This document shows positions 7,209 to 61,211 of a stretch of DNA of 64,000 nt, in pieces. Both the position numbers and the translations under genes were made by a program. Source of the stretch: a virus; the IMG/VR virus record IMGVR_UViG_3300008107_005910, positions 1 through 64,000 of that record; one strand, written 5' to 3'. Every line of letters starts with the position of its first letter. Position 1 is the first letter of the stretch. Below the pieces are notes generated by a model that did not search any database, was not told the DNA's origin, and saw only the letters and a list, made by a program, of their open reading frames with translations.

Positions 7209-7214
7209 TCTATT

Positions 7215-36776: not shown

Positions 36777-37325
36777 ATGAAACCAGTGTTGATGATACAC
36801 GAAATCAAAGAAGAATTCTTTGATTTACCCTTAGAAAACTACATTCTAACATTTGATGACGGGCTTTACAGCCAGTATCACTACTACCCACGCTTCAAAG
36901 AAATACCCACTGAAAAGATATATTTCATCAGTTCAGGAATAATTTGTAATGGATCACAAAGTACAGAATTCCCTGCTTGTCACATCGCCCACGATAAAGC
37001 ATTTCAAGGAAACTTTGAAGATTACATGACTTTAGATCAAATTAAAGAATTAATGAAGGATCCATTAGTTAGTATTGGTGGGCATAGTCATGTACATAAA
37101 AATCTAAAAGAACTAACAAAAGTAACGCATAGAGCCATGCACGTTATGAACGACACTAAACTCATGATGAATTGGTTCAAAGAAAATTTAAACTTTACTC
37201 CAACTAAATTTTGTTTCCCTTACAATGATGACAACGATGGTTTTTACGTGCCTGTTTTAAAGTCAGTGGGCTTTACAGAATTTTACGGCAAAGAACGATT
37301 GGCTATTGAAAACGTTGCCAATTAA
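36777..37325 (+). CDS. polysaccharide deacetylase (CE4/NodB-like)
   Basis: LTFDDG, GGHSHVH, FCFPY. Confidence 0.85.
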   Translation: MKPVLMIHEIKEEFFDLPLENYILTFDDGLYSQYHYYPRFKEIPTEKIYFISSGIICNGSQSTEFPACHIAHDKAFQGNFEDYMTLDQIKELMKDPLVSIGGHSHVHKNLKELTKVTHRAMHVMNDTKLMMNWFKENLNFTPTKFCFPYNDDNDGFYVPVLKSVGFTEFYGKERLAIENVAN

Positions 37326-37539
37326 TCTTATTCCAAAGTCTTTCATGTAGATAATACAAAATAGTATTTGCTATCAGTTGTATTACTGCGATAGTACCTG
37401 CTATAGTTAAGTCACTGGATATAAGCCAGCTGATTAAAAAAGTAGAACCACTTCCAGTTAATCGCCAGCTTATTGTTTTAACTATACTACGACGTGGACT
37501 TTCATTCAAGTCCCATCTCCTTACGAATCTTTGTAGCAC
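37303..37539 (-). CDS. DUF2061-like small membrane protein
   Basis: ES..RSIVKTISWR...YYLHERLW. Confidence 0.75.
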   Translation of the reverse strand: MLQRFVRRWDLNESPRRSIVKTISWRLTGSGSTFLISWLISSDLTIAGTIAVIQLIANTILYYLHERLWNKINWQRFQ

Positions 37540-38293
37540 TTATGTTAGTGATACTTTCATCAAATGTTTCTTGTTCTATTTTATACCCAACGTCTCTACC
37601 ATACGTGATGTTAGTAATATTAGGAACTAACATAACTTGAAACTGTCCTTGATAAATTGGTTCAAGGTCACGTTTAATATTACGCACAACTTGGAAAAAG
37701 TCAAACGGATTGCTTCCTTGCCATCCTTGGCAATCCCTCACCATGATACACACTTGACCAGTCTTAGCGATAGCACGTTCAAATAAGGCGCGATGTCCTT
37801 TATGCCATGGTTGCCAACGTCCTAACATTTGTACAGTTTCTTTCTTGTTGTCCCAACGTGGACGTCTACGATTGTCAATTATGTGTTCAGCAATAAAGTC
37901 TACCCATTTTTCTGCCCACTGCTCTGTAATACGAAAATCATAAATCTCAGGTTCTACGAACATCTTGTTAGTGTCTTCGTAACGTCCTTCATCTATAGTG
38001 TCTACCCATATAGTCCAGTCAGCTTTAAAGTTATTACGCATTTCGACCAATGGAGCAACAAAGTCTACAATACAATAATCTGTGTTACTTGTGTCGGCCA
38101 ATTCACGCATGCGGTGACTTTGTCTAATACGACCTTCACGACTAAAATCCCAATCGTCAAAATGTCTACGAACTTCATCAGCGTTAAGCCATCCCACAGT
38201 TTTTTCGTATCCTTCTAAACGTTTTTTCAAACGTTCTGCTAGATATGTTTTTCCAGCTCCTGGCAATCCCATAATTAAAATTCTTTGTGTCAT
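37502..38293 (-). CDS. adenylylsulfate kinase-like domain fused to an HxGH nucleotidyltransferase-like domain
   Basis: MGLPGAGKT P-loop, NADEVR, DFSREGR; GRWQPWHKGH, ISATKIR. Confidence 0.8.
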   Translation of the reverse strand: MTQRILIMGLPGAGKTYLAERLKKRLEGYEKTVGWLNADEVRRHFDDWDFSREGRIRQSHRMRELADTSNTDYCIVDFVAPLVEMRNNFKADWTIWVDTIDEGRYEDTNKMFVEPEIYDFRITEQWAEKWVDFIAEHIIDNRRRPRWDNKKETVQMLGRWQPWHKGHRALFERAIAKTGQVCIMVRDCQGWQGSNPFDFFQVVRNIKRDLEPIYQGQFQVMLVPNITNITYGRDVGYKIEQETFDESITNISATKIRKEMGLE

Positions 38294-38349
38294 AATAGAT
38301 GCATCCTTTGATTTATTTATTGGTGATAACTGCGTACATAAATATTTCC

Positions 38350-39870
38350 ATGAATCATTGTTTAATTTTTGGTGTTACCAACGGCGGAATTTTTAGAGCT
38401 ACTGGTGCTCATAGAATCGCTAATCATCTTAGACTTCAGGGTTGGGACTGTGAAGTTGTAGATTTTATTGAATATTGGTCGTTTGATCAAATAAAAGAAC
38501 TATTATTATCTAGGGTTAATGAGAATACAAAGTTCTTTGGTTTCTCTATTACATTTAATCTAACAAAAAATGAACAATTATTGTTAAATTTGGTTAATTG
38601 GGCAAAGGAAAAATGGCCTAATCTGAAATTTATTTCAGGCGGTCATAGCGTTCCTTTTTTCCCTGCACCATTTGATTATCACATAATGAGTTATGCTGAA
38701 TTTGCACTAGATGAATTATTAAAATGGTTATTTTCAAATGGTGTAACTCCGGTATTTGATCCATTGCTTAAGAAAGGCAACATGGAGGTTATTAATGCTA
38801 CAGTACACCTTCCTTCTCATCCATTTCCTGAAGCAGTTATAAAATATGAGCCAAGAGATTTTATGACTCCTACAGATCATGGAGTTATAGAATTCAGCAG
38901 GGGTTGTATTTTCCAATGTAAATTTTGTAACTTTCCTGTCTTAGGCGTTAGAGGAGATTATACCAGATCAGCAGAAAGTGTCTATGAACAAATGATGTTT
39001 AATTATGACAATTATGGCGTACAAGATTACGGAGTAAGCGACGAGACATTCAATGACCGTACTGAGAAAATTGCAAAATTTGCAGATGTAGTTGAAAAAC
39101 TACCTTGGAAACCATATTTTAGTGCATTTATTCGTGCTGACTTGTTGATATCAAGACCTAGAGATAGAGAAGAACTTTTAAGACTTGGGTTACACGCACA
39201 CCTGTATGGTATAGAGTCGTTTAACGCACAATCTTTAAAATACATTGGAAAAGGTATGGCTCCAGATAGGCTTAAAGAAGGTCTTATCGATGTAAGAAAC
39301 TATTTTAAAAAACATATTGGACATAGATTTCGAGCATCAATTAATTTGATAGCTGGGTTACCTCATGAAACACTTGAAACTATGGAAGAAACTTGTCAGT
39401 GGATACACAAAAATTGGTTAGATCAAACTGTTACTTGCCAGCCTTTACGAATTAATAAAGACGACGAGCCGCGACCATCGATCGTTGATGAATCATATGA
39501 TACATTAGGGTATATTGAAATGACACCTGAAGAGCAATATGCGGCAATCAATTCTAGAGACGGAGAAGCATGGGTTCATTTAGAATATGGTCATTTTGAA
39601 CTTCTTGAAAGAAATCGCATATGGAAAAATGAACATATGAATTGGTATCAAGCTGTGTCATATTCTGCTAAAATTAATGGGGGTGGAAAGAAATTTGGAA
39701 ACATTGAAAAAGTTTATCCATTACACATGCCTCTAGTTTATTCAGATAAGTTTGGTAATATATTGACCACAGATGAAAAATTAAAACTATATGGAAAGAA
39801 AACTAGGGAAGCTGAAGAAGGCGCAAGGGTATACATACAAAATTATATATCTAAAAAATTAAGTCTTTAA
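38350..39870 (+). CDS. B12-binding-domain radical SAM protein
   Basis: Start moved to MNHCL; SRGCIFQCKFC, DETFN, GIESF, IAGLPHET. Confidence 0.85.
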   Translation: MNHCLIFGVTNGGIFRATGAHRIANHLRLQGWDCEVVDFIEYWSFDQIKELLLSRVNENTKFFGFSITFNLTKNEQLLLNLVNWAKEKWPNLKFISGGHSVPFFPAPFDYHIMSYAEFALDELLKWLFSNGVTPVFDPLLKKGNMEVINATVHLPSHPFPEAVIKYEPRDFMTPTDHGVIEFSRGCIFQCKFCNFPVLGVRGDYTRSAESVYEQMMFNYDNYGVQDYGVSDETFNDRTEKIAKFADVVEKLPWKPYFSAFIRADLLISRPRDREELLRLGLHAHLYGIESFNAQSLKYIGKGMAPDRLKEGLIDVRNYFKKHIGHRFRASINLIAGLPHETLETMEETCQWIHKNWLDQTVTCQPLRINKDDEPRPSIVDESYDTLGYIEMTPEEQYAAINSRDGEAWVHLEYGHFELLERNRIWKNEHMNWYQAVSYSAKINGGGKKFGNIEKVYPLHMPLVYSDKFGNILTTDEKLKLYGKKTREAEEGARVYIQNYISKKLSL

Positions 39871-39871
39871 T

Positions 39872-40555
39872 ATGTCTATACATTTTCCCTACGTTCCAGC
39901 AACTTATCGTAATATACCTAAAACGGGAACTACCAGCTTTAAATGGTGGTCTAGAGACAATATAAAAAATTGTGAAATATTAGAAGACCCTTCTAGGATT
40001 TATAATATGCAACATTTGTCTTTAGAAGAGATTCAACAAAAGTGGCCAAACTACGGAACAACTTTTACATTTGTACGAAATCCATTTGATAGAATGGTCA
40101 GTATATTTCATCACGTAGGCCAAGATGCCGAGGCACGAATTAAACAGCGTCCACTAGGCGGTACAAAAGAACAGTACGGAGTCAAACAAGAAGAACTAGA
40201 CTCTATACCAATTGAAATTGATATTAAAGTTTTACAAGTTTATAGGAAGGGATTTGATCACTGGGTACATTCAGACTTTGTACCAAATTACAATGATTCT
40301 CTAAATTCTTTGCTACATCAAAAAGAAAGTCAGATGTATTGGCTTAATAATGTAGTGCCTGATATTGTTATTAAAATTGAAGAAGTTAATCAAAAGTTTA
40401 ATCTATTACAAGACTTACTTGAATGCCATGTTCCTTTCATACATATAAACAAAAGTGAACACAAGCCTTACAAAGAGTATTATAACGAGTCAACTAAAAA
40501 GATAGTAAGAGATCTATTTAAAGATGACCTTGACGCTTTCAACTACGATTTTTAA
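39872..40555 (+). CDS. sulfotransferase (Sulfotransfer_2-like)
   Basis: IPKTGTTS, FVRNPFDRMVS, D...FNY.F. Confidence 0.85.
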   Translation: MSIHFPYVPATYRNIPKTGTTSFKWWSRDNIKNCEILEDPSRIYNMQHLSLEEIQQKWPNYGTTFTFVRNPFDRMVSIFHHVGQDAEARIKQRPLGGTKEQYGVKQEELDSIPIEIDIKVLQVYRKGFDHWVHSDFVPNYNDSLNSLLHQKESQMYWLNNVVPDIVIKIEEVNQKFNLLQDLLECHVPFIHINKSEHKPYKEYYNESTKKIVRDLFKDDLDAFNYDF

Positions 40556-41196
40556 CGTCTAGAAAAAACAAGTTGGAAAGCTTCTGCATAGTTAACACCA
40601 ATTTGTGTTCCCCTAAACTTTGCTCTAGTTTCCATTGATTCAATACTACGTGCATCAGGGTATTGATAAGTTTCAGTTTGATACAAGTCCAATGCTTGCT
40701 TCTTTATATTAATAAAATCCCCAACATCAACAAAGATGTTTGGTTCAAATGTAGGTTGTACTTTATAGAAAGACCAATCTGAGCTGGCTGGTATTTCACA
40801 GAAGTACAATTCTTTAATAGTGGATTGTGGTTTGGGTCTACAAGCAACCATTGTTGCTTCTGCTACTACCCTGTGATCTTGATGTATGTCTGAAATACTG
40901 TGTGTATATACTACATCAGGTTTCATTTGGGCAATGATACTTTCAAGTTTATGAATAGTGGGTTGAGCAGTTAAAGCCAAATCAGGAACATTGTGGATTG
41001 TCCCTGTCGCACCAAATAGTTTACAGGCTTCATAAAACGATTTAACTCGTTGACTTGATACATTTTCATTGCCTGGACGTGCTCCATTGCACAATGAAAA
41101 GACATGCACATCATTGTCTAAAGAAAGTTTAGCAATAGTCCCACCTGGACCAAAACTCTCATCGTCGGGGTGTGCAAAAATAAACATTATTTTCAT
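40552..41196 (-). CDS. PIG-L/LmbE family N-deacetylase
   Basis: AHPDDE, D.HQDH, YAEAF. Confidence 0.9.
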   Translation of the reverse strand: MKIMFIFAHPDDESFGPGGTIAKLSLDNDVHVFSLCNGARPGNENVSSQRVKSFYEACKLFGATGTIHNVPDLALTAQPTIHKLESIIAQMKPDVVYTHSISDIHQDHRVVAEATMVACRPKPQSTIKELYFCEIPASSDWSFYKVQPTFEPNIFVDVGDFINIKKQALDLYQTETYQYPDARSIESMETRAKFRGTQIGVNYAEAFQLVFSRR

Positions 41197-42116
41197 AACA
41201 TATCCTTGATAATATCATCAAGATTATTAATAGGAAGATATTTAATATGCTGTTTAATTTTTGATAAATCTGGTATGCGAACGTTAATATCACCGTGATT
41301 AGATGAGAAAGCTTCTTCATAAGGAACACGAGTAATTTTACTTGATGAGTTACTCAGTGCTATGACACGCTCTGCTAGATCATTGATTGTTATAGGACTA
41401 TCATTACCAATATTAAACAACTCGCCATTAATAGTTGATACTTTGACCAGTGCGTCTACTGCATCATTAACGTGACAGAAACAACGTATTTGTTGGCCGC
41501 TTCCGTATACAACAAGGTCTTTTCCTTCCTTTGCGGCTTGCACAAATCTTGGCAGTACCATTCCGTAATCACCAAGTTGGCCAGGCCCAACTACATTAAA
41601 AAATCTAACTATTGTAAATGGACATCCGCTTGCTCTAAGCATGAACTCCATCATTAACTTACTGGTAGCATAACCCCAACGAAGTTTACTACTTGGGCCT
41701 ATGCTGGCATTTGCTTCTTCGTAAAATGGTCCGTCACCATATACTTCACTGGTGCTTGAAAAAACTACATGTTTTTTTGCACGTTGAAATAATGGCAACA
41801 ATTTGTTGTTCAAAGCAACATTGTTAAACAGTGTTTCACTAGGATGTTTATCTATATATTCAACACCAACGCTTCCTGCAAGATGGAATATCCTATGATT
41901 TTTACTGAATAATTTTAAAAGTTCATTGTCTTCCATTGTGGTAATGTCAGCTTCAATAAAATCAAATAAATTTTTATATTCAGAAAAATCATCTACATTA
42001 ATTTTAGAAGTTTTTAAATTATCAATAATGGTTACACGTTCTTGTCTTGTTTTAAGAAGTCTGTGTGCTAGGTGCTGGCCTATGAAGCCCGCGCCTCCCA
42101 GTAGTAAATTGTTCAT
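41193..42116 (-). CDS. NAD-dependent nucleotide-sugar epimerase/dehydratase
   Basis: GGAGFIG, SSTSEVYG, YATSK, RFFNVVGP. Confidence 0.9.
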   Translation of the reverse strand: MNNLLLGGAGFIGQHLAHRLLKTRQERVTIIDNLKTSKINVDDFSEYKNLFDFIEADITTMEDNELLKLFSKNHRIFHLAGSVGVEYIDKHPSETLFNNVALNNKLLPLFQRAKKHVVFSSTSEVYGDGPFYEEANASIGPSSKLRWGYATSKLMMEFMLRASGCPFTIVRFFNVVGPGQLGDYGMVLPRFVQAAKEGKDLVVYGSGQQIRCFCHVNDAVDALVKVSTINGELFNIGNDSPITINDLAERVIALSNSSSKITRVPYEEAFSSNHGDINVRIPDLSKIKQHIKYLPINNLDDIIKDML

Positions 42117-42669
42117 AAATATCACCTAAAGTAATAATTTCCGTGTTAAATTGATCTAATCTAGACATTGCTTCAACCACATCACTGATGTGAGCAATGT
42201 AATGCAACTTGTTTGGTTGAGCAGGTTTGTATGCAGTACCTTTAATACAGCGCATAATAAATGCATCATCGTGCATACCTTCTCCGTATACAGATGGTAA
42301 TCTATAATTGATGCAGTCAATATCGCTATGTAAAAGATAAATTTCCATACACCGCTTTGCTACATTATACGCTCCTTGGGCAGTATCTGCAATATCAAAT
42401 ACGCCAAAAGTTGAAGCATTAATAAATGTTGCGGAAGGACAAATCATCATGGCTTTACGTGTACTATCTAAAATAGTATCCATAACGCCTATGGTATTAT
42501 CAGTAATAGTCTTAGTTGTGCTAGGACATGCTAAGTGATAAATCCTGTCACAATTTACTTGCTCAAAGTTCTTGGATATTTGAATTACTTCAAAGCCATC
42601 TAATTCTAACTGTTTAATAAGGTGCTTACCAATAAATCCTGTTGATCCCGTGATGGCAACTTTTTGCAT
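42052..42669 (-). CDS. NAD-dependent epimerase/dehydratase (short)
   Basis: ITGSTGFIG, YHLACP, YNVAK, RLPSVYG. Confidence 0.82.
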   Translation of the reverse strand: MQKVAITGSTGFIGKHLIKQLELDGFEVIQISKNFEQVNCDRIYHLACPSTTKTITDNTIGVMDTILDSTRKAMMICPSATFINASTFGVFDIADTAQGAYNVAKRCMEIYLLHSDIDCINYRLPSVYGEGMHDDAFIMRCIKGTAYKPAQPNKLHYIAHISDVVEAMSRLDQFNTEIITLGDIYEQFTTGRRGLHRPAPSTQTS

Positions 42670-43472
42670 ATGATCCTTTCTATATCTTTTAAATTCTGTG
42701 CGAAATTTTCTGCGTTCTTGTAAATTTGATCAGCATAGTGCTCTGTTCTACTCTTGTGAACTTCTATTGATACTAATAGTGTTTGTAATTCATTTTCATT
42801 AAAAAGCTCTAACTTTGTCTCTTTTTCTTTATATGTATCTGATAACATAGACATCATCAAAATTACACTAACATTAAAATTTTTATAGTAGAACAAAAAT
42901 GCTTGGTACCCTGTAAATTTAAAACCTGTATCTGTTTTTTTAATTCGATTACAGTCAAAACAACGAAAAATATCCCCATACTCAAATAAAATATCATCAG
43001 TTGATGGCATCATATAACTTGGGGTGTAATCAAAAATAATCTTATTATAACTCAGTTGTTCTTCTTTAGTTAACTGTTGTTTAAAAGGAAGTATATGTGC
43101 ATTGAGTTCCTTAATTTGTTGATCCATTAATAAACAATCATCATAAGACAATTTCCCTAAATCAGGATAGTAAGGCATGTTTTCATAAAACCAAAGTTGG
43201 TCATCAACTTCAATAATTTTTACAATTGATTTCTCAAAAACATCAATTGGATTTTCCTCTAACCACTTGTCTAATTTATCTAATACAATATATCTAGCTT
43301 GATTGTTTTCAGTTATAGCACAAAAATTTATAAATCTATCTTTTACTTTTATAATGTAATCGTAAAATAATGGATCTTCATAGACGTAATAATATTCAAC
43401 ATCAATTGATGGAATATCAACAGCTTTTAACAATTTAAAGAACTTTAACTTTTCCAAGGCGCAGTATCCCAA
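42606..43472 (-). CDS. hypothetical protein
   Basis: 288 aa ORF coupled within the island. Confidence 0.6.
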   Translation of the reverse strand: MGYCALEKLKFFKLLKAVDIPSIDVEYYYVYEDPLFYDYIIKVKDRFINFCAITENNQARYIVLDKLDKWLEENPIDVFEKSIVKIIEVDDQLWFYENMPYYPDLGKLSYDDCLLMDQQIKELNAHILPFKQQLTKEEQLSYNKIIFDYTPSYMMPSTDDILFEYGDIFRCFDCNRIKKTDTGFKFTGYQAFLFYYKNFNVSVILMMSMLSDTYKEKETKLELFNENELQTLLVSIEVHKSRTEHYADQIYKNAENFAQNLKDIERIICKKLPSRDQQDLLVSTLLNS

Positions 43473-43921
43473 CCCAGTCTAATATAACGAACTCCTTTTT
43501 GTTGTAGTCCTTCTTTGACTGTTCTAATGAATGTGGATGTATCAATTGGGTCATACAACGGTATCCCCAATGCTTCCATTAGTTTGCTGTCGTCATCCAA
43601 TAAATGCCCTCTCCCGCAGATACTGTAACATCCGTTTGCGCCCGCATTAACAAAAAGTATGCTTCCATAATTTTCTGCCCATCCTTTGATGTTAAGTTTA
43701 ATTTGTTCGTATGCTTTGTATATTACAAATCCAGCAACTCCGTATATAATAACACGTTTACCTTGACTGGCAAGACCTGCGGCAATATTGACCATGTTAG
43801 GCTCTTGAACACCACAATTAATAATGTTATAATTGCTGTCAGTCCACTTCCACATGTCGCAATGAAGAAAATATACTTCTCCTGGATAGCGATTTAAAAA
43901 TTTATGTAAGGTTTCTCTCAT
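43445..43921 (-). CDS. transketolase-like, pyrimidine-binding (C-terminal) subunit
   Basis: NCGVQEPNMVNIAAGLA, AYEQIK, YIRLG. Confidence 0.85.
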   Translation of the reverse strand: MRETLHKFLNRYPGEVYFLHCDMWKWTDSNYNIINCGVQEPNMVNIAAGLASQGKRVIIYGVAGFVIYKAYEQIKLNIKGWAENYGSILFVNAGANGCYSICGRGHLLDDDSKLMEALGIPLYDPIDTSTFIRTVKEGLQQKGVRYIRLGWDTAPWKS

Positions 43922-46851: not shown

Positions 46852-47438
46852 TATATGACCATCCTAGTACCAGTTACATCTAACTCAATGTAGCTTAAAC
46901 CTTTTATGGTTGGTACATTTATAATTTGTTTTGCGGCAATTAATGGATCTACTGCTTGATCAATATGACTTAGGTTACCTGTAAGTTTTGTTCTAACAAA
47001 CCCAGGATGAACCAATTGCCAATTAATGTGTTCAAATTGTTTTGACAGTTCCATCACTCCCATGTTTAATGCCGCCTTGCTCATTCGATAATATATAGAA
47101 GCAGTATCAGCTGAGATTACATTGCCTTTAGTCAATGCACCAAGTATACTTGTTAATACAACAATCTTGTCGTTAACATGCGGAGCAATATACTGTAAAA
47201 ACTCAATGCTTCGCGTTGCATTAACTTCCATTGTTTCATCTGCTTCAGTTGATATACCAATACAATAATATACTTTTGAAAACTTGTTTTGGAATACGGG
47301 CCAACTACTCTTATCTTTAATATCTAACTGTATAAATTTAGAATCAGTCCTTCTACTCGTACCAAGTGCATCAGGCAATAATTCATGTATTGCTTTGCCA
47401 ATGCCGCTGTCAACACCAATAACAATATCCTTAATCAT
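46851..47438 (-). CDS. short-chain dehydrogenase/reductase
   Basis: GVDSGIG, YRMSKAALN, VHPGFVRT. Confidence 0.88.
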   Translation of the reverse strand: MIKDIVIGVDSGIGKAIHELLPDALGTSRRTDSKFIQLDIKDKSSWPVFQNKFSKVYYCIGISTEADETMEVNATRSIEFLQYIAPHVNDKIVVLTSILGALTKGNVISADTASIYYRMSKAALNMGVMELSKQFEHINWQLVHPGFVRTKLTGNLSHIDQAVDPLIAAKQIINVPTIKGLSYIELDVTGTRMVI

Positions 47439-48069: not shown

Positions 48070-48075
48070 GATACA

Positions 48076-53866: not shown

Positions 53867-54792
53867 GTTATGAACTCTTTAACATATTTGATAAAATCAT
53901 CGTTATCTGTCAATAATAATGAATTAATGTCTTTTGAAATATCTTCTCGCCTTCTTTCAACGCCACCGCAGACATAATCAATATCATATATCACTTCCTT
54001 ACCATAAACTGCACACTCAACAATAAACCTTGGGCTACAATCTCCTTTATCTGGTGTAGCAGTATATATGTAGGTATCAAAGTTTTCAAATATATTTTTG
54101 ATTGGCGCTTGAGCAACAATCACATTGTCGCTTGCTATCGTTTTGTAGATGTGAGGTTCATTAGTAAGTACTAGATATTTGTCAAATTGATATTTAGATA
54201 AAACATTTTTCAAATCATTAATTGATAATGCTCTACAGTTAGTAGTTAGGTAGAGAAGTGCTGTATTAGTTTTTATTAGTTGTGGATGATGATATTTTGA
54301 CCAAAGTATCTTTTTGACATAGTCTATTACTTTGATATTAATGTTATCATATCTCTCAGGATATAACTTAAAATCCTGCATGACATGAGCATGTTTGATT
54401 GTTTTGTGATTATGGAAGCTACTGAAGTCGTCTTCACTACACCTTAGTAAAAACATATTTTCAGTATAGAAGACACAACTTAAGAATCGCCAACTGCCAT
54501 CAACAACACAGACATTGTTTGCCATAACAATTTTAGGCACAGCACACTCAAACGTGTCTTCTTGTATTTTTACAAATTCGTCTTCTGTGAAACTATATTT
54601 GTCTTTGACCGCAGTTAAAAATAAATCTTTGCTAGTACGGTCAGTTAACAAAATGCAGGAATTAATTCCATTGATAGAACTTATGTAATAATAGTCGATG
54701 AGTTCATACAAGTGGCCACTGACACCATGCTGGCATTCAAAAGAAGTGGTGAAGACGAGATCGTACTTCTTTAGATCGACTATTTTGGACAT
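53863..54792 (-). CDS. hypothetical protein (possible GT-B glycosyltransferase)
   Basis: HGVSGH; DCSPRFIVEC..YGK resembles the GT-B E-x7-E region. Confidence 0.55.
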   Translation of the reverse strand: MSKIVDLKKYDLVFTTSFECQHGVSGHLYELIDYYYISSINGINSCILLTDRTSKDLFLTAVKDKYSFTEDEFVKIQEDTFECAVPKIVMANNVCVVDGSWRFLSCVFYTENMFLLRCSEDDFSSFHNHKTIKHAHVMQDFKLYPERYDNINIKVIDYVKKILWSKYHHPQLIKTNTALLYLTTNCRALSINDLKNVLSKYQFDKYLVLTNEPHIYKTIASDNVIVAQAPIKNIFENFDTYIYTATPDKGDCSPRFIVECAVYGKEVIYDIDYVCGGVERRREDISKDINSLLLTDNDDFIKYVKEFIT

Positions 54793-54795
54793 CTG

Positions 54796-55797
54796 TCACT
54801 CCTTTGGAGCGAAGATTTGTTCAAGAGTGATTGGGGTGTAACCTAAAGAAACAAGCAAAGAATCTGAAAGATGTGGGAGTGGACGATTGTATTCTTTTTC
54901 TAATTCTTCTCTAAATCTAGAATATGCTGAACATATTCCTTCAACTGCGTCAACATCCACGTAGTCTAAATTTAAATTTTCTTTTTCCCACACAGATATT
55001 ATTCCGTTGTAATCTGCATATCCTTCAGGCATCTGAATTTTGTGATTTTCAATCTCAACGTAACCACTCTTTAATATATCTTCAAATTTAATAGATGTTA
55101 CGTCAGTGAGTTGGTTTAGTGTATATGCGTTAACTGCTGACCTAATTGCTCTTATTCGATTTCTCTCTGGAGACATTGTAGGATTTTTTTCATAATACGA
55201 AGGTTTATTTTCGTTGAAGTATGTAACTACGGAAGGGTGTCTTATGATATTGTACACCTTTACATTTTGCTCACCTATGTCTCTTTTTATTAAATCAATA
55301 AATGCTTTTGAAAAAGAACCATTTACAACATGTACATTAGATGGTCTATTTCTATAGTAATTTAAAAAGTCTTGATAACCGTGTGCAAAACTATGATACT
55401 GTATTGGAGTATCCCATTCATAGGCGCTAGTATCTATACCAAGATCATATTCTATATCAACAAAAATAGTTTCAAAACTTGAAGGATTATTTGTCATGTC
55501 TAAAAATAATCTATCATACAAGTCGTCAGCTTCTGTAAAAATAGACAACCCGTCCTCGCCGCTAAGAAGTGTTGTTAGTTCTCGATTTTTTGTATCATAA
55601 ACAACTTCATTTTGTGCATTGAATATTTGAAAAGGATGAGCTATATATGACTTACCATCGTCAGATTCTGCAAATTCTGCATCAAACGTAACAGTGTGTC
55701 CATTTTTCAAATTAAAGACTGGATTCATAGCGCAAAAAACTTTTTTTGCGATATAATTTTTATTAATTGATTCTAGACCACTAATAATGACTAACAT
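54796..55797 (-). CDS. hypothetical protein (paralog of 49019..49708)
   Basis: ISGL, GSFS..F.D.IK.D, NIIRHP, KFEDIL, LGY.P. Confidence 0.6.
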   Translation of the reverse strand: MLVIISGLESINKNYIAKKVFCAMNPVFNLKNGHTVTFDAEFAESDDGKSYIAHPFQIFNAQNEVVYDTKNRELTTLLSGEDGLSIFTEADDLYDRLFLDMTNNPSSFETIFVDIEYDLGIDTSAYEWDTPIQYHSFAHGYQDFLNYYRNRPSNVHVVNGSFSKAFIDLIKRDIGEQNVKVYNIIRHPSVVTYFNENKPSYYEKNPTMSPERNRIRAIRSAVNAYTLNQLTDVTSIKFEDILKSGYVEIENHKIQMPEGYADYNGIISVWEKENLNLDYVDVDAVEGICSAYSRFREELEKEYNRPLPHLSDSLLVSLGYTPITLEQIFAPKE

Positions 55798-55801
55798 CCA
55801 A

Positions 55802-56209
55802 TTATTTCCTTAGATAAGACTCAACAATCAAATTAACTGCGTCCTCATCATTTTGATTTGGCAGTCTTTTTAATTTGTTTATAATATCAAAATACTGTTC
55901 TTTTTTATCTTCTAAAATTTTAATTTCGTCTTTTAAAGTGATGTATTTTTCTAAATCTGCAATCAATGACTCGTCATTAAGTTCAATGATTTTAATATAA
56001 CATTCTTCTTTATTATCATCTGTGATTGCAATGCCTTTACTTAAAAATTTATTGTTTAACATCATTAAAGACACGAAGTCAATTAATTTAAAAGTTAAAA
56101 GGTCATCACCAAAATAACCACGGGCCTTAGTTTTAACTGCCCATGCCGCTTTTCCTGCATAAGTTGATCTGTCAATACCTTCTATTTCTTTTTTATTACT
56201 GTCATCCAT
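55802..56209 (-). CDS. hypothetical protein
   Basis: Start moved to MDDSNKK (GAGG RBS, right after the S74-frame stop). Confidence 0.65.
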   Translation of the reverse strand: MDDSNKKEIEGIDRSTYAGKAAWAVKTKARGYFGDDLLTFKLIDFVSLMMLNNKFLSKGIAITDDNKEECYIKIIELNDESLIADLEKYITLKDEIKILEDKKEQYFDIINKLKRLPNQNDEDAVNLIVESYLRK

Positions 56210-56210
56210 C

Positions 56211-56429
56211 TTAAGCCTCAATCATTTTTACTGGTAATTTTGAATAGTTTACTTGATAATAACCGTTTGAATCTTTACTTAGTGCATCTTCATATTTGGT
56301 GCCTAAAAGTTCTTGAGCCATAACACCAATATAAGTCTTAGCAGTGTTCCAAACGTAAGAGAAGGAATAAACATTTAAGCCTTCAACAATGTCAACAAGT
56401 TTGATAGATGTCTTTAATCTAATATCACT
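56211..56429 (-). pseudogene. orphan peptidase S74 / intramolecular chaperone domain, out of frame with 56428..56643
   Basis: Hand translation SDIRLKTSIKLVDIVEGLNVYSFSYVWNTAKTYIGVMAQELLGTKYEDALSKDSNGYYQVNYSKL...EA*; SD-x-RLK, G-x-MAQE, V-x-Y motifs; no start codon of its own. Confidence 0.8.
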
Positions 56430-56643
56430 AATTTAAATCGGCAGCTTCAATCAAACCAGTAAATCTAGCTTGAACTACAGGTGCGGCGGTGCTTCCTCGT
56501 CTAACACGTTCTAAATTGACTGCGGTTTCAATTTCTCTAAATTTGGTAGTTGTAACTTGTACTCCGGCTGCAACTGCTGGCAAAAAATAAATTACAGCAT
56601 CTGATCCAGGATTGGTACCAAATGTATTAATGACTTTTGGCAT
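56428..56643 (-). CDS. N-terminal part of candidate substrate/precursor protein
   Basis: GAGGAG RBS; stops at AAT TAG exactly where the S74 frame begins (+1). Confidence 0.7.
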   Translation of the reverse strand: MPKVINTFGTNPGSDAVIYFLPAVAAGVQVTTTKFREIETAVNLERVRRGSTAAPVVQARFTGLIEAADLN

Positions 56644-56656
56644 TACGTTGCTCCTC

Positions 56657-57046
56657 TTATATCTCTTTGTTCAAGAACTCTAAGTTCTGTTTAGCACTAT
56701 TTTGAGCAACAAACTTTTCATAATCGTCTAAATCAGAAGAGGCAGTTATAAAATCGAGAGTCTCTTCGTCTGGTGCTTTAGTAAAATTCATGTTTCCGTT
56801 TTCTACGGCTTGTTTTTCCAAAATGCTCAAAACTAATTCTTCCAATGAAAAACCCAAAATGCCTGTAACAATTTGGATTTTTTCGCTTACATCCATATTT
56901 TTTGTTTCAGCAACATGTTTGGCTGCTTTGATAATGTTTATTGACATACCAAAGCCTTCCATGAAGACGTATCCAACATCTTGATTCTCTTTCTCGATTT
57001 CCTTAATCAAATCATAAATTTGACCCATTTTTTCTTCAATCGCCAT
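56657..57046 (-). CDS. hypothetical protein
   Basis: AAGGA RBS; 129 aa. Confidence 0.65.
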   Translation of the reverse strand: MAIEEKMGQIYDLIKEIEKENQDVGYVFMEGFGMSINIIKAAKHVAETKNMDVSEKIQIVTGILGFSLEELVLSILEKQAVENGNMNFTKAPDEETLDFITASSDLDDYEKFVAQNSAKQNLEFLNKEI

Positions 57047-57926
57047 TTTTTAATTCCTTGTCTTTAAAATCGTGAAAACGCGGCGCATTTTCGTAATTAC
57101 CATATGTTGTGACGTTGCCTTCATCAGTGAAATACGTTTTTAACTGCTTTCGCTCCCCGCATCCGTTGCACATATCGCAAAATAGTTCACAAATAGGGGT
57201 TTTTATGCTGTTATTTATCCAATCATCTCTGAGCTGATTTTTAATCCTATCTAGGGTTTTCACATCGTTTTCGTCAATTTGTTCCCAAACTACAGATGTT
57301 ATCAATCTAACTGGCTTGAAGGTTTTAATGATTCTTGTCATATCTTCATAAAGATGATTGATATTAAGTTTGTGTATGGTATATCTTATTCTAAATTTCA
57401 CCCTATTTTGATTTAATTTAGATAAAACTTTAATTATGGTTGTAGTACTATCCATACCATTGTGGAAAATCCTATCGCCATTTCCCACACCGTCAAAGCT
57501 CACGTCTATGCTCAACTGTCCGCTCTTATAAAAGAAATTATTTTTAACCCTGTTAATAAATCTTTGACTTAAAAATCTTAAACCATTTGTGGTTAAATTA
57601 AAATGTACATTCTTTTTCTTAAGATATGCGTATGACATAGCGTAACAGACATTGTCCCATTCTAAAGTGGCCTCTCCACCAAATAGTACTATTAATGTTT
57701 GTCTGTCTGGATCCAATTCTCTTTCCAAGATAGCATCAATGCTTTTTTCAATATCTTCCTTAGTCATGATCTGTGGAGGACGACCTGGCAGATCTTCGTA
57801 ACAATAGGTGCAGGCTAAATTACACTTATTTGTAAAATATAAAACATTAACTGCTGAACCTTCAAAAGTAGGTTTCTCTGTTTTATCACCTACATAAAAT
57901 TCATAAGGAAAGGCCGTATCTGTCAT
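57036..57926 (-). CDS. radical SAM protein (anaerobic sulfatase-maturase-like core)
   Basis: CNLACTYC, FGGEAT, TTNG, SFDG; CELFCDMCNGC. Confidence 0.9.
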   Translation of the reverse strand: MTDTAFPYEFYVGDKTEKPTFEGSAVNVLYFTNKCNLACTYCYEDLPGRPPQIMTKEDIEKSIDAILERELDPDRQTLIVLFGGEATLEWDNVCYAMSYAYLKKKNVHFNLTTNGLRFLSQRFINRVKNNFFYKSGQLSIDVSFDGVGNGDRIFHNGMDSTTTIIKVLSKLNQNRVKFRIRYTIHKLNINHLYEDMTRIIKTFKPVRLITSVVWEQIDENDVKTLDRIKNQLRDDWINNSIKTPICELFCDMCNGCGERKQLKTYFTDEGNVTTYGNYENAPRFHDFKDKELKNGD

Positions 57927-58192
57927 TGTCTAGCCTTTGCTTCTTTTACAATGTGAGCAACATTATCTAAGAATTTTACGTAATCAAATTTATATTCAAA
58001 CAAGTGGCCTGCTTCATTCCTGTAATCAACATAATGATTGTCTACTTTTGCCTTGCCTTTTTTTGCTTCTTCAATTTGTTGTTGTAAATTATCAATAGTT
58101 AAAACAGTATCGCTCTTATGCTCAACTGGCTGCATTTCTACTTTAACAGGAATGGCAGCTATGCTTTTATAAGTTTTTTTTAATTCTTGCAT
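57923..58192 (-). CDS. small hypothetical protein
   Basis: 89 aa coupled between two radical SAM genes. Confidence 0.6.
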   Translation of the reverse strand: MQELKKTYKSIAAIPVKVEMQPVEHKSDTVLTIDNLQQQIEEAKKGKAKVDNHYVDYRNEAGHLFEYKFDYVKFLDNVAHIVKEAKARQ

Positions 58193-59307
58193 TTTTGCAC
58201 ATCCTTTGAATCAGAAGCACCTTCACTGAGCCAATGAACAATGAGGTCTTGAAATACTGGCTCATCTCGACATTCATCTACTACACGCATTGCTTGTTCG
58301 TAAGTGATGTGGAAAATTTCACAAATACTATCTAAAGGTTTGTTGTCGTTCATTATTTGACTGTAAGTACAACCTGCATTACATACTTGTTTTAGATCAC
58401 AAGGTTGGCACTTGTCAAAAGTTTTTGGATTAAACTTGTCTTGATAATATTTGAAATTATAATTGTCGTCCATGAGCATGATTTTCTTACTAGCAAATCT
58501 AGCACATGGATAAAACTCGCCGCTACTCATCAAAACACCACCGTGTGTTCCTGCAAAACAACCAAATGGTCTTTTACCTTTTACTAGTCCGTATATAGAA
58601 TCTAATATTGCCAGTCTAAGGAAACCAACACTACATGATACACCTTGTTTTAACTTTTCAATATAACAGTCAGTTAGTCTAACTAATTCAGTTTTGAAAA
58701 ATCTAATATCATCAGCAGTCCAAACATCGTCTCTAACAATACTAAAGTCTGGATGTGGGATACCCCAATCTAAAAGAAACTCAAAATTTTCTTTCATGTC
58801 TTTGGTATTGCCTGGCCAAATCATAACCTTACATCCATTTGCTAGATCTTTTATTAGATGTTTTTTGTGCTCGTATAAGTCTAAGATTCCATTAAACAAC
58901 TCTCCAGTTTCTGGATTAGTGTTTTCAAGTAAGGGAAGTAATGGTCTGCTTTCGTTTGAACTCATTCCATCAAAGCTCCAACTTATTCCTATTCCAGATT
59001 CTTTGATAAATTTAAACTTATCATCATCTATCATAGTTAAATTAGAGATAATGTTTATTCCTTTACATCTAGGATCTTTGGTTAATATTGGAGTTGCATG
59101 TTTGATCAATTCCCAATTTAATAAAGGCTCTCCTCCAAAAAAACTAACAAAGAAATCCTTTTGTCCAGAACGATCCATTAATTCAAATAGTTTTGGTAAA
59201 GATTCATCAAATGTTTCTTTGGTCATCCAAGTAGGACGATTTGCCACATAACAATAAGGACATCCCAAATTACATTTTTCAGTAACGCTAATTTCTAATA
59301 CAAACAT
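58180..59307 (-). CDS. radical SAM/SPASM maturase
   Basis: CNLGCPYC, FFGGEPLL, CFAG..G..YPC, C.PC...VCNAGC, C. Confidence 0.92.
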   Translation of the reverse strand: MFVLEISVTEKCNLGCPYCYVANRPTWMTKETFDESLPKLFELMDRSGQKDFFVSFFGGEPLLNWELIKHATPILTKDPRCKGINIISNLTMIDDDKFKFIKESGIGISWSFDGMSSNESRPLLPLLENTNPETGELFNGILDLYEHKKHLIKDLANGCKVMIWPGNTKDMKENFEFLLDWGIPHPDFSIVRDDVWTADDIRFFKTELVRLTDCYIEKLKQGVSCSVGFLRLAILDSIYGLVKGKRPFGCFAGTHGGVLMSSGEFYPCARFASKKIMLMDDNYNFKYYQDKFNPKTFDKCQPCDLKQVCNAGCTYSQIMNDNKPLDSICEIFHITYEQAMRVVDECRDEPVFQDLIVHWLSEGASDSKDVQKCKN

Positions 59308-59316
59308 ATCGTCTCC

Positions 59317-60423
59317 TTATGCTGTACATTGTTCAGCGTGAATCTTAATAACAGGCTTTTTGTATGTGTTCATTGCAGTTCTTAGAGCATGATGAACTAC
59401 TTCGTTTGTCTTAAAAACTTTACATACTTGCCAATTAGAAGTATGATCACTCCACTTTTCTAAATAAGTTTCTTTCTCTGATTTTTCAAACGTGGCTGCA
59501 TTACACTTCATGCAAAATTGGCTATCGCAACTCATACAATCCAAAGGTTGATTTTTTAGTGCATCTTTATACATTGCACTTCGTTCTTGTATAAGTTCAT
59601 CTATGTTAGGTGTTGTATTAATATTACCCATAACATGTGCATGTGATTCTTTATACATACAACCATGGCAAGGACTAATATCTCCGTTTAGGTCAACACT
59701 AACATATTTGATTCCAGCTGAACATAGCGGTCTACTCTGTTGGAACCAAGCAAAAACTTCTGGTTTTAGTTTATTGGTGTAAATGTATTTTGCAATTTTT
59801 GCCAATCCCTGTTTGAGCACTTCAAGTTTTGGATAAAATTCTTCTTCAGTTAATTGGCTGTAAAGGTCTGGAGTGGGGAAATATGAACCTGTAAGTTCAT
59901 ATACATCTAGGAATGCTTCATATATCAAGTGAAAGTTTTCAGCAGTTAAAACAGATTTCATTCTAACATTCAATCCATTTTCTCTAGCAGCCAAGAAATT
60001 AGCCTTTACTAGTTCAGAGCTTACGTTTCCTGATTTGTCTACTCTAGTTCTATCATTGACGGCCTTACCATCATAAGATATTTGGAACTGTAGTCTTTCA
60101 CCTAATTCTTTTGTTAGAGCAACTAGTTCTTTCATATACTTTCTTAAATATACACCATTGGTATAAAAGAAGAAACTATAATTAGAATCATGTTTATATT
60201 TTTCTATGACGCCTTTACAAAATTCCCAATTAATAAAAGGTTCACCGCCCCAAAAATAAATTTCTCTTTTTGGGTCTGAGAGTTTACTCATAAACTCTTC
60301 AATGTTGTCTAGGGTTACGGAAGTGTTTTCTTCATATGCTGTTGATAGGCCGCATTCATAGCCTTCAGAACAGTAAGTACAAGCCAGATTGCACGTACTG
60401 GTTACGTTGATGTCAATTATCAT
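59317..60423 (-). CDS. radical SAM/SPASM maturase
   Basis: CNLACTYC, WGGEP, CSAG..GDISPCHGC, CMSC...CMKC, C. Confidence 0.92.
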   Translation of the reverse strand: MIIDINVTSTCNLACTYCSEGYECGLSTAYEENTSVTLDNIEEFMSKLSDPKREIYFWGGEPFINWEFCKGVIEKYKHDSNYSFFFYTNGVYLRKYMKELVALTKELGERLQFQISYDGKAVNDRTRVDKSGNVSSELVKANFLAARENGLNVRMKSVLTAENFHLIYEAFLDVYELTGSYFPTPDLYSQLTEEEFYPKLEVLKQGLAKIAKYIYTNKLKPEVFAWFQQSRPLCSAGIKYVSVDLNGDISPCHGCMYKESHAHVMGNINTTPNIDELIQERSAMYKDALKNQPLDCMSCDSQFCMKCNAATFEKSEKETYLEKWSDHTSNWQVCKVFKTNEVVHHALRTAMNTYKKPVIKIHAEQCTA

Positions 60424-60470
60424 ATTTTTCCTTAGTATTTTTTAAACGCCCACCGCTGGGCTAATGTTAT

Positions 60471-61211
60471 TTAGCTTCTATATTTTTGGTTTATTTCGAG
60501 TACGGATTTAAGCAATTCTACGTCAAATTCTTTAACTAATGCTTCTGTATCTTTAGGTAAGCAAGGTCCACCAAAACCACGCTCACCATCGGGGCCTGGG
60601 ACTTGAAAGTGGTGTGTACCCATCCAAGGGTGATTTGCAAGTATGGATGTTACATGTGGCCACTTGACTCCTAACTGTTGGGCAACATCATACATCTGAT
60701 TCATAAAGGTCACTTTGGTAGCATAAAAACTGTTCATGCAATACTTGGCCATTGCCGCAGTTTTGACATCAGTGAAGATTACTTTGTCCATATTGACAAT
60801 GGACTGTGTTCTATAAATGTCGGCTAACTTGAAACCCTGTCTGTCATCATTGCAGCCAATTAAAACAAATGGAGGATCAGTGAAATCAGTATTGGCAGTT
60901 GCCCTAGATAAAAACTCAGGATTGTAAACTATATTATACGGTACCAAGTAATCTGGAAGTATGGTACTCTTGACAACCACTATCCCAATGTATCCTGTAG
61001 ATTCTATTCTATCTAAAACACTGGTCAAGATGCTATAATTGGTATCATTGGTTGGGGTGGGCACACAAACAAAAATGGCGTCAGGTGCCTGTTTGCAAAT
61101 ATCTTCTACAGATATATCATTGTACTCTGGGTCTGAGCAGATGACTTGTGTTTTGGAGAATCCAAACTCCACAGCCTTCCCCACCATACCATAACCAATA
61201 ATACCAATCAT
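60471..61211 (-). CDS. ugd: UDP-glucose/GDP-mannose 6-dehydrogenase (no C-terminal domain)
   Basis: IIGYGMVG, CVPTP, KST, NPEFL, GFGGPCLPKD. Confidence 0.88.
   Translation of the reverse strand: MIGIIGYGMVGKAVEFGFSKTQVICSDPEYNDISVEDICKQAPDAIFVCVPTPTNDTNYSILTSVLDRIESTGYIGIVVVKSTILPDYLVPYNIVYNPEFLSRATANTDFTDPPFVLIGCNDDRQGFKLADIYRTQSIVNMDKVIFTDVKTAAMAKYCMNSFYATKVTFMNQMYDVAQQLGVKWPHVTSILANHPWMGTHHFQVPGPDGERGFGGPCLPKDTEALVKEFDVELLKSVLEINQKYRS

Follow-up and report, generated by a model that had tools for sequence, protein, structure and literature searches.

Why would a virus keep eight radical S-adenosylmethionine (radical SAM) enzymes together with a set of sugar enzymes? The question is raised by a 64,000-nucleotide stretch of DNA (the window), positions 1 to 64,000 of the IMG/VR virus record IMGVR_UViG_3300008107_005910. 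The window opens a viral contig of 76,770 bp whose CheckV completeness is about 22%. Its positions 36777-61211 form an island of about 24 kb that encodes eight radical SAM enzymes, two glycosyltransferases and sugar-tailoring genes. A preliminary description of the window suggested a multi-step pathway that tailors either a virion protein or a surface glycan. We consider it fairly probable that the island is an expanded, phage-specific cassette for the post-translational maturation of a single small fibre-type protein encoded by the phage. In other words, a protein of the phage's own particle is probably cross-linked and decorated by the phage enzymes. The gene of this protein, and the fact that the copy in the window is broken, had been overlooked in the preliminary description.

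From 61211 down to 40552 the genes form a single minus-strand run in which neighbours overlap or lie at most 47 nt apart, as had been described. Below, genes are named by their first coordinate, and features of the island are on the minus strand unless marked otherwise. We distinguish module A (60471-55802), with three radical SAM enzymes (the triad) around the putative substrate gene, from module B (54796-36777). The triad and the substrate gene are the head of a larger conserved operon, which continues with four to five more radical SAM genes, two glycosyltransferases, a U32-like barrel and a sugar-tailoring set. All eight CxxxCxxC proteins listed earlier are indeed radical SAM proteins: they score 38-74 bits against PF04055 (gathering threshold 29.5 bits) and have one canonical CX3CX2C motif each, the one noted at 38350 lying inside 38299-39870.

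What might these enzymes act on? In relatives, the gene between the homologues of 56657 and 55802 encodes a fibre-type protein of 199-308 amino acids. Its variable N-terminal part, with E-R-x-R-R-G and I-T-A-x-x-I-N-x-L-type repeats, is followed by four invariant C-T-C-N-C-N-Y heptads, after which the protein either continues in frame into an S74 domain or stops exactly at ...C-N-Y(-S). No Pfam family and no named PHROG covers the heptad repeat. The S74 domain of phage fibres assists trimer folding and then cuts itself at the serine of S-D-x-R-L-K.

In the window this gene is in pieces. An N-terminal remnant of 71 residues (56431-56643) has no cysteine, keeps the motif as ERVRRG and ends at a TAG made by a deletion. 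The Peptidase_S74 intramolecular-chaperone domain (56214-56432; PF13884, 31.2 bits, cut-off 22) starts with the cleavage motif S-D-I-R-L-K and lies in the +1 frame relative to the remnant. The deletion is evident from contig JACCDY011229061.1 (L119), which is 98.8-99.3% identical at the nucleotide level to window 52944-61046. By blastn, its positions 1-4617 correspond to window 61046-56430 and its positions 4902-8387 to window 56429-52944, meaning that 284 bp are missing at the junction 56429-56430. The missing segment equals 94 codons plus 2 nt and includes all four Cys heptads. Since 284 is not a multiple of three, its loss results in the stop codon and in the frame shift of the window copy.

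L119 and L120 (about 90% identical) were found by a metagenome search with protein 56657. Both carry an intact gene for a protein of 238 amino acids (4404-5117 in L119), made up of the 71 window residues (identical to residues 1-71), 94 more and the same S74 domain; the domain is fused in frame in these two as well as in L003, L010 and L031. The heptads of the intact gene read C-V-C-N-C-N-Y, C-T-C-N-C-N-Y, C-T-C-D-C-N-Y and C-T-C-Q-C-N-Y. A 97%-identical intact form is found on nine contigs, and for this reason we regard the intact gene as the usual state of the lineage. An exact search found the deletion junction in no other IMG/VR contig, and the 284-bp deletion is either a strain variant or an assembly error. 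Two other explanations were tried and abandoned. Programmed +1 frameshifting at A-A-T-T-A-G was dismissed, because the near-identical contig shows the 284-bp deletion exactly there; an 'orphan' enzyme set without a substrate was rejected after the intact gene had been found in L119 and L120.

How general is the association? A pattern search based on an alignment of the substrates of relatives located Cys-heptad genes at 35 viral loci, with arrays of 4 to more than 30 C-x-C-[ND]-C-N-[YF] units. Some of these loci have three or four tandem copies of the gene, and the Campylobacter phages CP21 and CPt10 are among the carriers. At nearly all loci with an upstream flank the heptad gene comes directly after homologues of 58180, 57036 and 59317, and many loci run on into module B. 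If instead one starts from the U32-like family, 29 viral loci with module B are obtained, of which 25 have an adjoining Cys-rich substrate gene, three are cut by contig ends and one is without it within 13 kb.

The family is variable in itself. Loci L036 (9413-11467) and L042 (9962-12523) have three or four tandem paralogues differing in their N-terminal parts; only some of these copies have a full S74 domain, the others ending with S-D-E-[QR]-[LV]-K...Y-[MI]. Hexads (C-x-C-N-x-x) or irregular Cys tails replace the heptads at L067 (9386-9838, minus strand), L100 (808), L115 (12378) and L116 (474-1106), and such tails also occur among the 25 substrates adjoining module B. Since these substrates still adjoin radical SAM genes and module B, the register of the repeat is not fixed across the family.

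The preliminary description had let its proposal depend on co-conservation across related phages, and the order of the block is in fact kept in many jumbo-phage contigs. A search with protein 58180 gave 12 viral contigs with homologues of about 76% identity; in every one of these contigs the entire stretch between the Ugd-like and U32-like genes, both included, is syntenic. For comparison we used the whole of G001 (214 kb) and part of G002 (202 kb), both of them complete phage genomes with terminal repeats. About 19 kb of the island is present in the same gene order in both and in dozens of other viral contigs; cellular genomes almost entirely lack it. The kept order begins with Ugd-like, 59317, 58180, 57923, 57036, 56657, substrate, 55802, 54796, GT-B, 52799 and GT2, and continues with 51244, 50505, U32-like, 45823, the two halves of the transketolase gene, the short-chain dehydrogenase/reductase (SDR) genes, the PIG-L gene and the deacetylase; it is found in G001, G002 and at least 12 further contigs. 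Identities to G001 and G002 across 45823, the transketolase halves, the SDRs and both deacetylases are 50-83%. Outside the island, only about sixteen window open reading frames (ORFs) have a match in G001, at scattered positions, so the island is far better conserved than the genome backbone.

The position of the island in G001 is suggestive as well. A baseplate-wedge gene and two giant ORFs spaced by 4 nt stand immediately before the island, a 1482-aa ORF with weak tail-fibre similarity lies about 0.6 kb to its 3' side, and a homologue of the A-type Fe-S carrier follows 40 bp after its end. In the window this carrier, reported earlier as ErpA, is encoded at 32551-32877 (PF01521, 70 bits). The idea that it supports the Fe-S load gains a little from its place in G001, which suggests a functional link of the carrier to the radical SAM enzymes.

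Prokaryotic genomes offer few parallels. Among 185,579 prokaryote species genomes the U32-like family is found on only four contigs of metagenome-assembled genomes (MAGs); one of them has a divergent Cys-repeat gene after radical SAM genes, and the MAG of a second has a heptad gene on another contig. In public metagenomes we count at least 278 clusters of the U32-like family and at least 484 clusters of the substrate, almost all unnamed.

Would the triad be suited to such a substrate? The first of its members, 59317 (59317-60423), is a radical SAM/SPASM protein (PF04055, 64 bits; SPASM, 24.5 bits against a cut-off of 21.5) with PapB-, QhpD- and SCIFF-like NCBIfam matches, all under their cut-offs, and with 75-78% identity in relatives. 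The second, 58180 (58180-59307; PF04055), has the best PapB score of the three (NF047865, 122 bits, cut-off 340), CteB (5WGG) as its closest solved chain (E 1.5e-12), and a C-terminal Cys cluster, CxxCx5C plus additional Cys; over its full length it is 35% identical to gp023 of Campylobacter phage CP220. The third, 57036 (57036-57926; PF04055, 46.6 bits; PapB, 91 bits), also has CefB- and SCIFF-like NCBIfam matches. It contains a second CX3CX2C-type cluster at residues 246-256 and ends with CX3CX2CX2C. All three thus have the SPASM or auxiliary-cluster cysteines of thioether maturases, and PapB heads the NCBIfam match list of each. Their PapB scores of 74-122 bits are far under the 340-bit cut-off and no RiPP recognition element (RRE) is fused to them, and for these reasons we do not file them as members of the PapB (NF047865) or SCIFF (TIGR03974) families.

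Three small conserved proteins accompany the triad. Protein 57923 (57923-58192; 89 aa) is syntenic with 63-72% identity, has no Pfam or PHROG match and is a candidate helper; in L003-L013 there is about 850 bp of additional sequence between the homologues of 58180 and 57923. Protein 56657 (56657-57046; 129 aa), directly 5' of the substrate gene, is syntenic with 40-46% identity and is 100% identical in L119. Protein 55802 (55802-56221; 139 aa; phrog_25260) is always encoded next after the substrate gene, with 63-74% identity in relatives and a homologue in CP220 (gp015); an ESM atlas search with it returned nothing informative.

PapB/PapA and CteB/CteA (NF047865, TIGR03974, 5WGG) are the best database matches of 58180, 59317 and 57036, and in these systems too the substrates are Cys-rich with Asx or Thr partners. 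The phage substrate differs from theirs in being a 238-aa fibre-type protein with neither a leader peptide/RRE architecture nor an exporter. Another known system is CrpC/CrpA of Methanococcus voltae: a SPASM radical SAM enzyme has been shown biochemically to put ranthionine links on a Cys-rich protein (PMC13692751). There, as here, a radical SAM/SPASM gene adjoins the gene of a Cys-rich protein, not of a short peptide, and thioether chemistry is expected. The phage in contrast has three enzymes, a strict seven-residue repeat, an S74 chaperone, up to five more radical SAM enzymes and a glycosylation module, and its enzymes have neither sequence-level evidence of membership nor an N-terminal RRE. 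Compared with endosialidase-type S74 tailspikes and fibres (PF13884), the phage protein has the same C-terminal domain from S-D-x-R-L-K onwards, for which trimer folding and self-cleavage are expected, but the domain follows a Cys heptad array on a very small protein, and some relatives have lost it.

Cysteines may of course bind metals. If the heptads were a metal or iron-sulfur scaffold on a trimeric fibre, the radical SAM enzymes would do other chemistry (epimerisation, methylation, C-C links) or act on sugar only. The strict C-x-C-x-C spacing over 4 to more than 30 repeats would suit such a scaffold, as would the A-type Fe-S carrier that adjoins the island in G001 and is encoded nearby in the window; His-x-His iron sites reportedly occur in gp37 of T4 and would be an analogue. 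The under-cut-off scores, from which the type of reaction is unreadable, leave room for other chemistry too. However, the characterised enzymes nearest to the triad form thioethers in Cys-rich peptides, and we hold the scaffold to be improbable.

Module B would bring in sugars, and its predicted pathway includes the first gene of the cassette, the Ugd-like 60471 (60471-61211). What had been called Ugd is a truncated, 246-aa nucleotide-sugar dehydrogenase-like protein. The Pfam UDPG_MGDP_dh N and central domains and the catalytic GGPCLPKD (GGxCxPKD) are kept, but the C-terminal UDP-binding domain is missing, so that the protein does not have the three domains of UDP-glucose 6-dehydrogenase; its NDP-sugDHase score (NCBIfam, 127 bits) is under the cut-off of 189.8. 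The gene is kept in all relatives, and gp019 of CP220 is a homologue.

Two glycosyltransferases are predicted. The GT-B that had been put forward as possible (53863-54792; phrog_24441) is supported by its AlphaFold model (pLDDT 92.5), whose top Foldseek matches are all GT-B proteins with probabilities of 0.94-1.0, including the protein-glycosylating enzymes HMW1C/NGT, SPY, OGT and EarP. The model has the GT-B fold with modest TM-scores (0.31-0.45), which are to be expected of a hinged two-domain fold. The second is the GT2 (GT-A) enzyme 52143 (52143-52802; PF00535, 43.5 bits), syntenic in relatives with 53-63% identity. Between the two lies radical SAM gene 52799 (52799-53866; PF04055, 74 bits), whose product has a CxxCx5C tail. 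Its best PDB match is the cytosylglucuronate decarboxylase BlsE (7VOB, E 3.5e-9 over the radical SAM core), followed by SkfB; its NCBIfam matches are NirJ-, AhbD-, MoaA- and BlsE-like, all under the cut-offs. BlsE, from the blasticidin S pathway, is similar in length to 52799 and is its closest solved relative, but the likeness is limited to the radical SAM core and the NCBIfam BlsE score (52 bits) is far under the cut-off of 400. Still, it suggests radical chemistry on a uronic-acid sugar, which would fit the Ugd-like gene and the UDP-xylose-synthase (UXS)/ArnA-like gene described below.

Further along, radical SAM proteins 51244 (51244-52146; 300 aa; PF04055, 38 bits, plus Fer4_12) and 50505 (50505-51254; 249 aa; PF04055, 41.8 bits) are 69-81% and 58-84% identical to their counterparts in relatives, where the former is often duplicated. 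They are followed by 49705 (49705-50520), the U32-like protein of the preliminary description, for which a TIM barrel is predicted (model pLDDT 84). The fold is of the U32 type: VIA gives Z 15.2 to the U32 peptidase Mk0906 (5d88; rmsd 3.5 over 218 residues) versus at most 11.6 for other barrels. The PF01136 score of 16.8 bits is under the cut-off of 22.4, one homologue has a precomputed PF01136 match, and some homologues were named 'collagenase-like PrtC' by JGI. Four cysteines (C43, C181, C185 and C212) are conserved. A U32-like barrel with four cysteines recalls the oxygen-independent Fe-S hydroxylases of the U32 family (UbiU/UbiV type). Profile searches of PDB sequences with the families of 53863, 49705 and 54796 gave nothing usable. 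The last conserved radical SAM protein, 45823 (45823-46851; 342 aa, 12 Cys; PF04055, 44 bits), is 54-64% identical in G001 and G002, has TIGR04084/PapB-like matches under the cut-off and SkfB as its best PDB match (E 3e-5).

The remaining sugar genes are a transketolase split into an N half (45110-45826) and a C half (43445-43921), both matching the family; a truncated SDR (42052-42669); a UXS/ArnA/GalE-like SDR epimerase/dehydratase (41193-42125); and a BshB/PIG-L-type N-acetylglucosamine deacetylase (40552-41196). The last three are 50-68% identical in G001 and G002. The conserved end of the island is a polysaccharide deacetylase family gene on the plus strand (36777-37325; PF01522, 25 bits), 49-55% identical and likewise terminal in G001 and G002, and also found in L090, L091, L094-L097 and L101. 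Most of the enzyme list drawn up before, namely the 2-oxoglutarate (2OG) oxygenase, GT2, sulfotransferase, two deacetylases and split transketolase, is confirmed by family searches. As for the SDR and the two epimerases, 41193 and the truncated 42052 hold, while the SDR-like fragment 46851 stays under the Pfam threshold.

We can now say how the cassette might work. The three CteB/PapB-like enzymes of module A would form intramolecular or interchain thioether-type cross-links from the heptad cysteines, and the small conserved proteins would help the triad to bind the substrate. Since Cys1 and Cys3 of each heptad stand three residues before Asn or Asp, one may speculate that two overlapping Cys-x-x-Asx rings are formed per repeat. 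Module B would produce a nucleotide sugar and remodel it, with glucuronate or a 4-keto-pentose as a possible intermediate. The enzymes for this would be the Ugd-like protein, the split transketolase, the UXS/ArnA-like SDR, the two deacetylases, the U32-like Fe-S barrel and radical SAM enzymes, the BlsE-like one among them; of these, the first two would suit a uronate or keto-sugar branch. GT-B and GT2 would then attach the sugar to the same heptad protein. Synteny, and the exact co-occurrence of GT-B with the heptad protein in cultured phages (see below), are our reasons for regarding the latter as the acceptor. Lineage-specific extras would be contributed by the flavin halogenase, the sulfotransferases with the APS-kinase-like protein, the B12 radical SAM enzyme of the methylase type and the 2OG oxygenase. 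The heptad protein would thus be cross-linked, glycosylated, halogenated and sulfated, giving a covalently stapled, decorated rod or tip on a virion fibre.

A bolder version, which we put forward only tentatively, is that large aquatic phages and Firehammerviruses rebuild their fibre tip: after S74-assisted trimerisation and self-removal of the S74 domain, the enzymes would turn the Cys-x-Cys-x-Cys-Asn-Tyr array into a cross-linked glycosylated rod. The set acting on the array would comprise seven to eight radical SAM enzymes, the two glycosyltransferases and a changing complement of enzymes for halogenation and sulfation. If this is correct, viral structural material or a receptor-binding element would be made by chemistry of the natural-product type, and the tailoring set would be shuffled to vary the surface.

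Several observations weigh against the maturation of a fibre-type protein by the cassette. No fused N-terminal RRE is found in the triad, where the radical SAM motif begins at residues 11-35 and alignments to CteB start at CteB residue 101; stand-alone small proteins (57923, 56657 and 55802) could replace it. The NCBIfam matches of the radical SAM enzymes are all far under the cut-offs, and the type of reaction cannot be read from such scores. That the heptad protein enters the virion is suggested only by its S74 domain and its neighbouring genes. The conserved core has no clear nucleotidyltransferase that would activate a sugar. The 76.7 kb of the window's contig contain no Cys-repeat gene, the local substrate copy being broken and free of cysteine. 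Finally, genome G011 has module B but no module A or Cys-rich gene within 13 kb on either side, so that modules A and B may be separable. G011 (L097, L114, L117) is a 147-kb viral contig, 65% complete, and the heptad pattern is nowhere in its record.

Such separability leads to the main alternative. Module A might mature the heptad protein while module B is a separate auxiliary sugar island, serving a host envelope glycan or another phage protein. It would then resemble the LPS-type gene clusters of marine cyanophages. The SDR, split transketolase, GT2, deacetylases and Ugd-like protein are typical of polysaccharide loci, G011 is as one would expect, and the accessory content is shuffled between phages. 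But a Cys-rich substrate adjoins module B at 25 of the 26 informative viral loci, the whole run is one overlapping operon, and the U32-like family is nearly absent from the prokaryote genomes. Moreover, a 19-residue hydrophobic scan found no clear membrane segment in the island proteins (only 56657 is borderline, at 1.62), and among the Pfam matches of the island there is no membrane-bound initiating transferase, flippase or polymerase, ABC exporter, transporter or lipid-carrier family. The island does not have the membrane and export machinery of a surface-polysaccharide (O-antigen or capsule) cluster. We therefore regard a separate sugar island as rather unlikely. With regard to the preliminary proposal, a co-conserved multi-step pathway that would tailor a virion-type protein is retained, and the surface glycan is less favoured, since relatives have the heptad/S74 gene inside the island and the membrane, transporter and lipid-carrier genes are missing.

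In the Campylobacter phages the genes are dispersed. Even so, the records with GT-B and those with the heptad protein are the same 15 of Campylobacter Firehammervirus, with none besides among 50,697 cultured-phage records, an exact co-occurrence that argues further against a sugar island of its own. Homologues of 58180, 59317, the Ugd-like protein, 55802 and the C half of the transketolase are found in these 15 as well. In CP21 the transketolase C-half homologue adjoins the heptad gene (CP21_105), and in CP220 GT-B (gp184) again adjoins a radical SAM gene. The CP220 cassette genes are split over at least three loci with IS200/IS605 elements nearby. One locus, at 13-17.5 kb (L001), has a QueE-like radical SAM gene, the Ugd-like gp019 and the radical SAM gene gp023; another, at 120.8-123.3 kb (L118), has gp185, GT-B gp184 and the radical SAM gene gp183, with the heptad gene CPT_0180 separate. 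According to Timms et al. 2010 (PMC2853527), repeat regions of CP220 differ in length and one repeat, of 21 bp, is within CPT_0180; this gene with its coding 21-bp repeat is the heptad gene. The radical SAM clusters of CP220 and CPt10, which were interpreted as boosters of host metabolism (Timms et al. 2010, PMC2853527), thus share with the window homologues of 58180, 59317, Ugd-like, 55802, transketolase C half, GT-B and the heptad gene, and differ in that their genes are scattered over the genome. In the window the genes make up a single operon, in the middle of which is the substrate.

Modified DNA occurs in Campylobacter phages whose radical SAM genes are related. Could the island then serve DNA hypermodification, with glycosylated or otherwise decorated bases as the product? 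Phages are known to encode DNA glycosyltransferases (Pyle et al. 2024, as listed among the references of PMC12619734). Against this, the island has no base-modifying enzyme, as was stated before, neither the window contig nor complete G001 has a thymidylate-synthase-type (ThyA-type) hydroxymethylase, and the island brings its own protein substrate. This explanation seems to us scarcely credible.

A diffusible small molecule released at lysis, an antibiotic or signal similar to aminoglycosides, nucleosides or glycosylated RiPPs (peptides made by the ribosome and modified after translation), should be considered too. The B12 radical SAM enzyme, the BlsE-like radical SAM enzyme, the halogenase, the transketolase and the sulfotransferase are of kinds common in secondary-metabolite clusters. 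However, no scaffold synthase, leader protease, exporter or immunity gene is found in the island, and the block is tightly linked to an S74 fibre-type protein of 200-300 aa, in G001 among baseplate and fibre genes. We find this very improbable.

Returning to the maturation of a virion protein, what is new in it? Small secreted peptides and a very small number of cellular proteins are the known targets of radical SAM cross-linking. Other virus-encoded glycosylation of virions is found in the glycan clusters of chloroviruses and mimiviruses. It is also known for the capsids and tails of mycobacteriophages (Freeman et al. 2023, PMC10527164). The phage likewise brings glycosyltransferases and sugar-tailoring genes of its own, which presumably serve a particle protein; it differs in that its predicted module is coupled to seven to eight radical SAM enzymes, a U32-like barrel, a halogenase, sulfotransferases and a Cys-repeat acceptor. 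Taken singly, the components are of kinds already known, namely cross-linking of proteins by radical SAM enzymes, S74 chaperones and glycosylation encoded by viruses; what is new is their combination, and that it would be used on a structural protein of a virus. A literature search found no published description of the phage system, and a search for the repeat motif came back empty; a paper on cyanophage S-SCSM2R deals with a single, unrelated radical SAM gene.

If correct, a virus that cross-links its own structural protein and couples this to a dedicated sugar pathway would give radical SAM chemistry a new role. It would also be a new layer of virion diversification, which might affect stability, receptor binding and evasion of host surface defences. 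The substrate and U32-like families are large and almost confined to phages, and in the island enzymes there is a reservoir of radical SAM, glycosyltransferase and U32-like activities yet to be explored. Campylobacter phages, which are cultured, would gain a testable explanation for their many radical SAM genes, a puzzle since 2010.

We now turn to the changeable parts of the cassette. The blocks 46851-49708, 42606-43472 and 37502-40555 are specific to the window or variable. The halogenase, sulfotransferases, B12 radical SAM enzyme and 2OG oxygenase are variable accessories and do not belong to the core, and they are distributed in the mix-and-match manner well known for biosynthetic gene clusters. 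The flavin-dependent halogenase (43902-45179; PF04820, 227 bits) is inserted between the transketolase halves. Such enzymes are recognised by a GxGxxG, a WxWxIP and a catalytic Lys and Glu. All four are present here, as GAGTSG, W-I-W-N-I-P, T-L-K-L-G-I (Lys81) and I-E-P-I-E-S-T-G, in full agreement with the initial annotation. The order N half, halogenase, C half recurs in L077, L090, L091 and L100; in G001 the halogenase is elsewhere, and G002 lacks it.

Block 46851-49708 is absent from this place in G001 and G002, with homologues elsewhere in L031, L036, L037 and L077. It consists of a paralogue of 54796 (49019-49708), a 318-aa protein without a family match (48076-49032), a 2OG-Fe(II) oxygenase (47431-48069; TIGR02466) and the SDR-like fragment (46851-47438). 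The conserved 333-aa protein 54796 itself (54796-55797; E 3e-19 to the paralogue) may have a sulfotransferase fold: in the ESM atlas it falls next to sulfotransferase clusters (0.94, with 141-150 features in common), and it has an R-x-P-S-like motif. Neither Pfam (ten family members), nor PDB, nor hhalign against the Sulfotransfer_2 protein of the window supports this assignment. A 288-aa insert without a family match (42606-43472) is an exception to the conservation in G001 and G002. None of the family searches made gave a match for 42606, 48076, 56657 or 57923.

The block 37502-40555 has three genes, all absent from G001 and G002: a Sulfotransfer_2 protein (Pfam; 39872-40555, plus strand), a B12-binding radical SAM protein above the PF04055 threshold (38299-39870, plus strand), and an APS (adenosine 5'-phosphosulfate)-kinase-like/nucleotidyltransferase-like protein (37502-38293). 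The last had been called an APS kinase fusion; about 90 residues do match APS kinase, but the rest is only a faint nucleotidyltransferase-like tail. Homologues of the B12 radical SAM and sulfotransferase genes belong to the cassettes of L051 and L077, and those of the 2OG oxygenase, sulfotransferase and B12 radical SAM genes take other positions in other cassettes.

As to the surroundings, genes for virion structural proteins, an exonuclease and a class Ia ribonucleotide reductase are found on the contig of the window. One of the structural proteins has 43-47% identity with proteins in T4-like cyanophages and in Puniceispirillum phage HMO-2011; megablast found no match of the window to the DNA of cultured phages. 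The G+C content of the island is 31-35%, versus 37-41% across much of the remaining window. A sigma-70-like promoter candidate (61229-61257, minus strand; TTGACA-17-TATTAT, 11/12) lies in the 78-bp divergent gap 5' of the first island gene, and is suggestive by position only, because the regional number of such sites is not above that in shuffled sequences. On the other side of the gap begins a 5-aminolevulinate synthase gene (61290-62480, plus strand; TIGR01821, 565 bits, cut-off 339), which adjoins the island in L031, L036 and L042 too, with 78-79% identity. This gene of the C4 haem pathway hints at an alphaproteobacterial host. Next come genes for a DUF454 membrane protein (62477-62896) and for an HNH endonuclease (62992-63504). 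Further auxiliary-type genes, all on the minus strand, occupy part of the space from the island to the nucleotide-metabolism block: those of a pterin-4a-carbinolamine dehydratase (34115-34498), a staphylococcal-nuclease-like protein (33008-33442) and a member of the fatty-acid desaturase family (31088-31789). Far from the island, ARAGORN finds a permuted tmRNA gene (tmRNA*; 5329-5778, plus strand) with a tag of 30 residues ending in ...YALAA.

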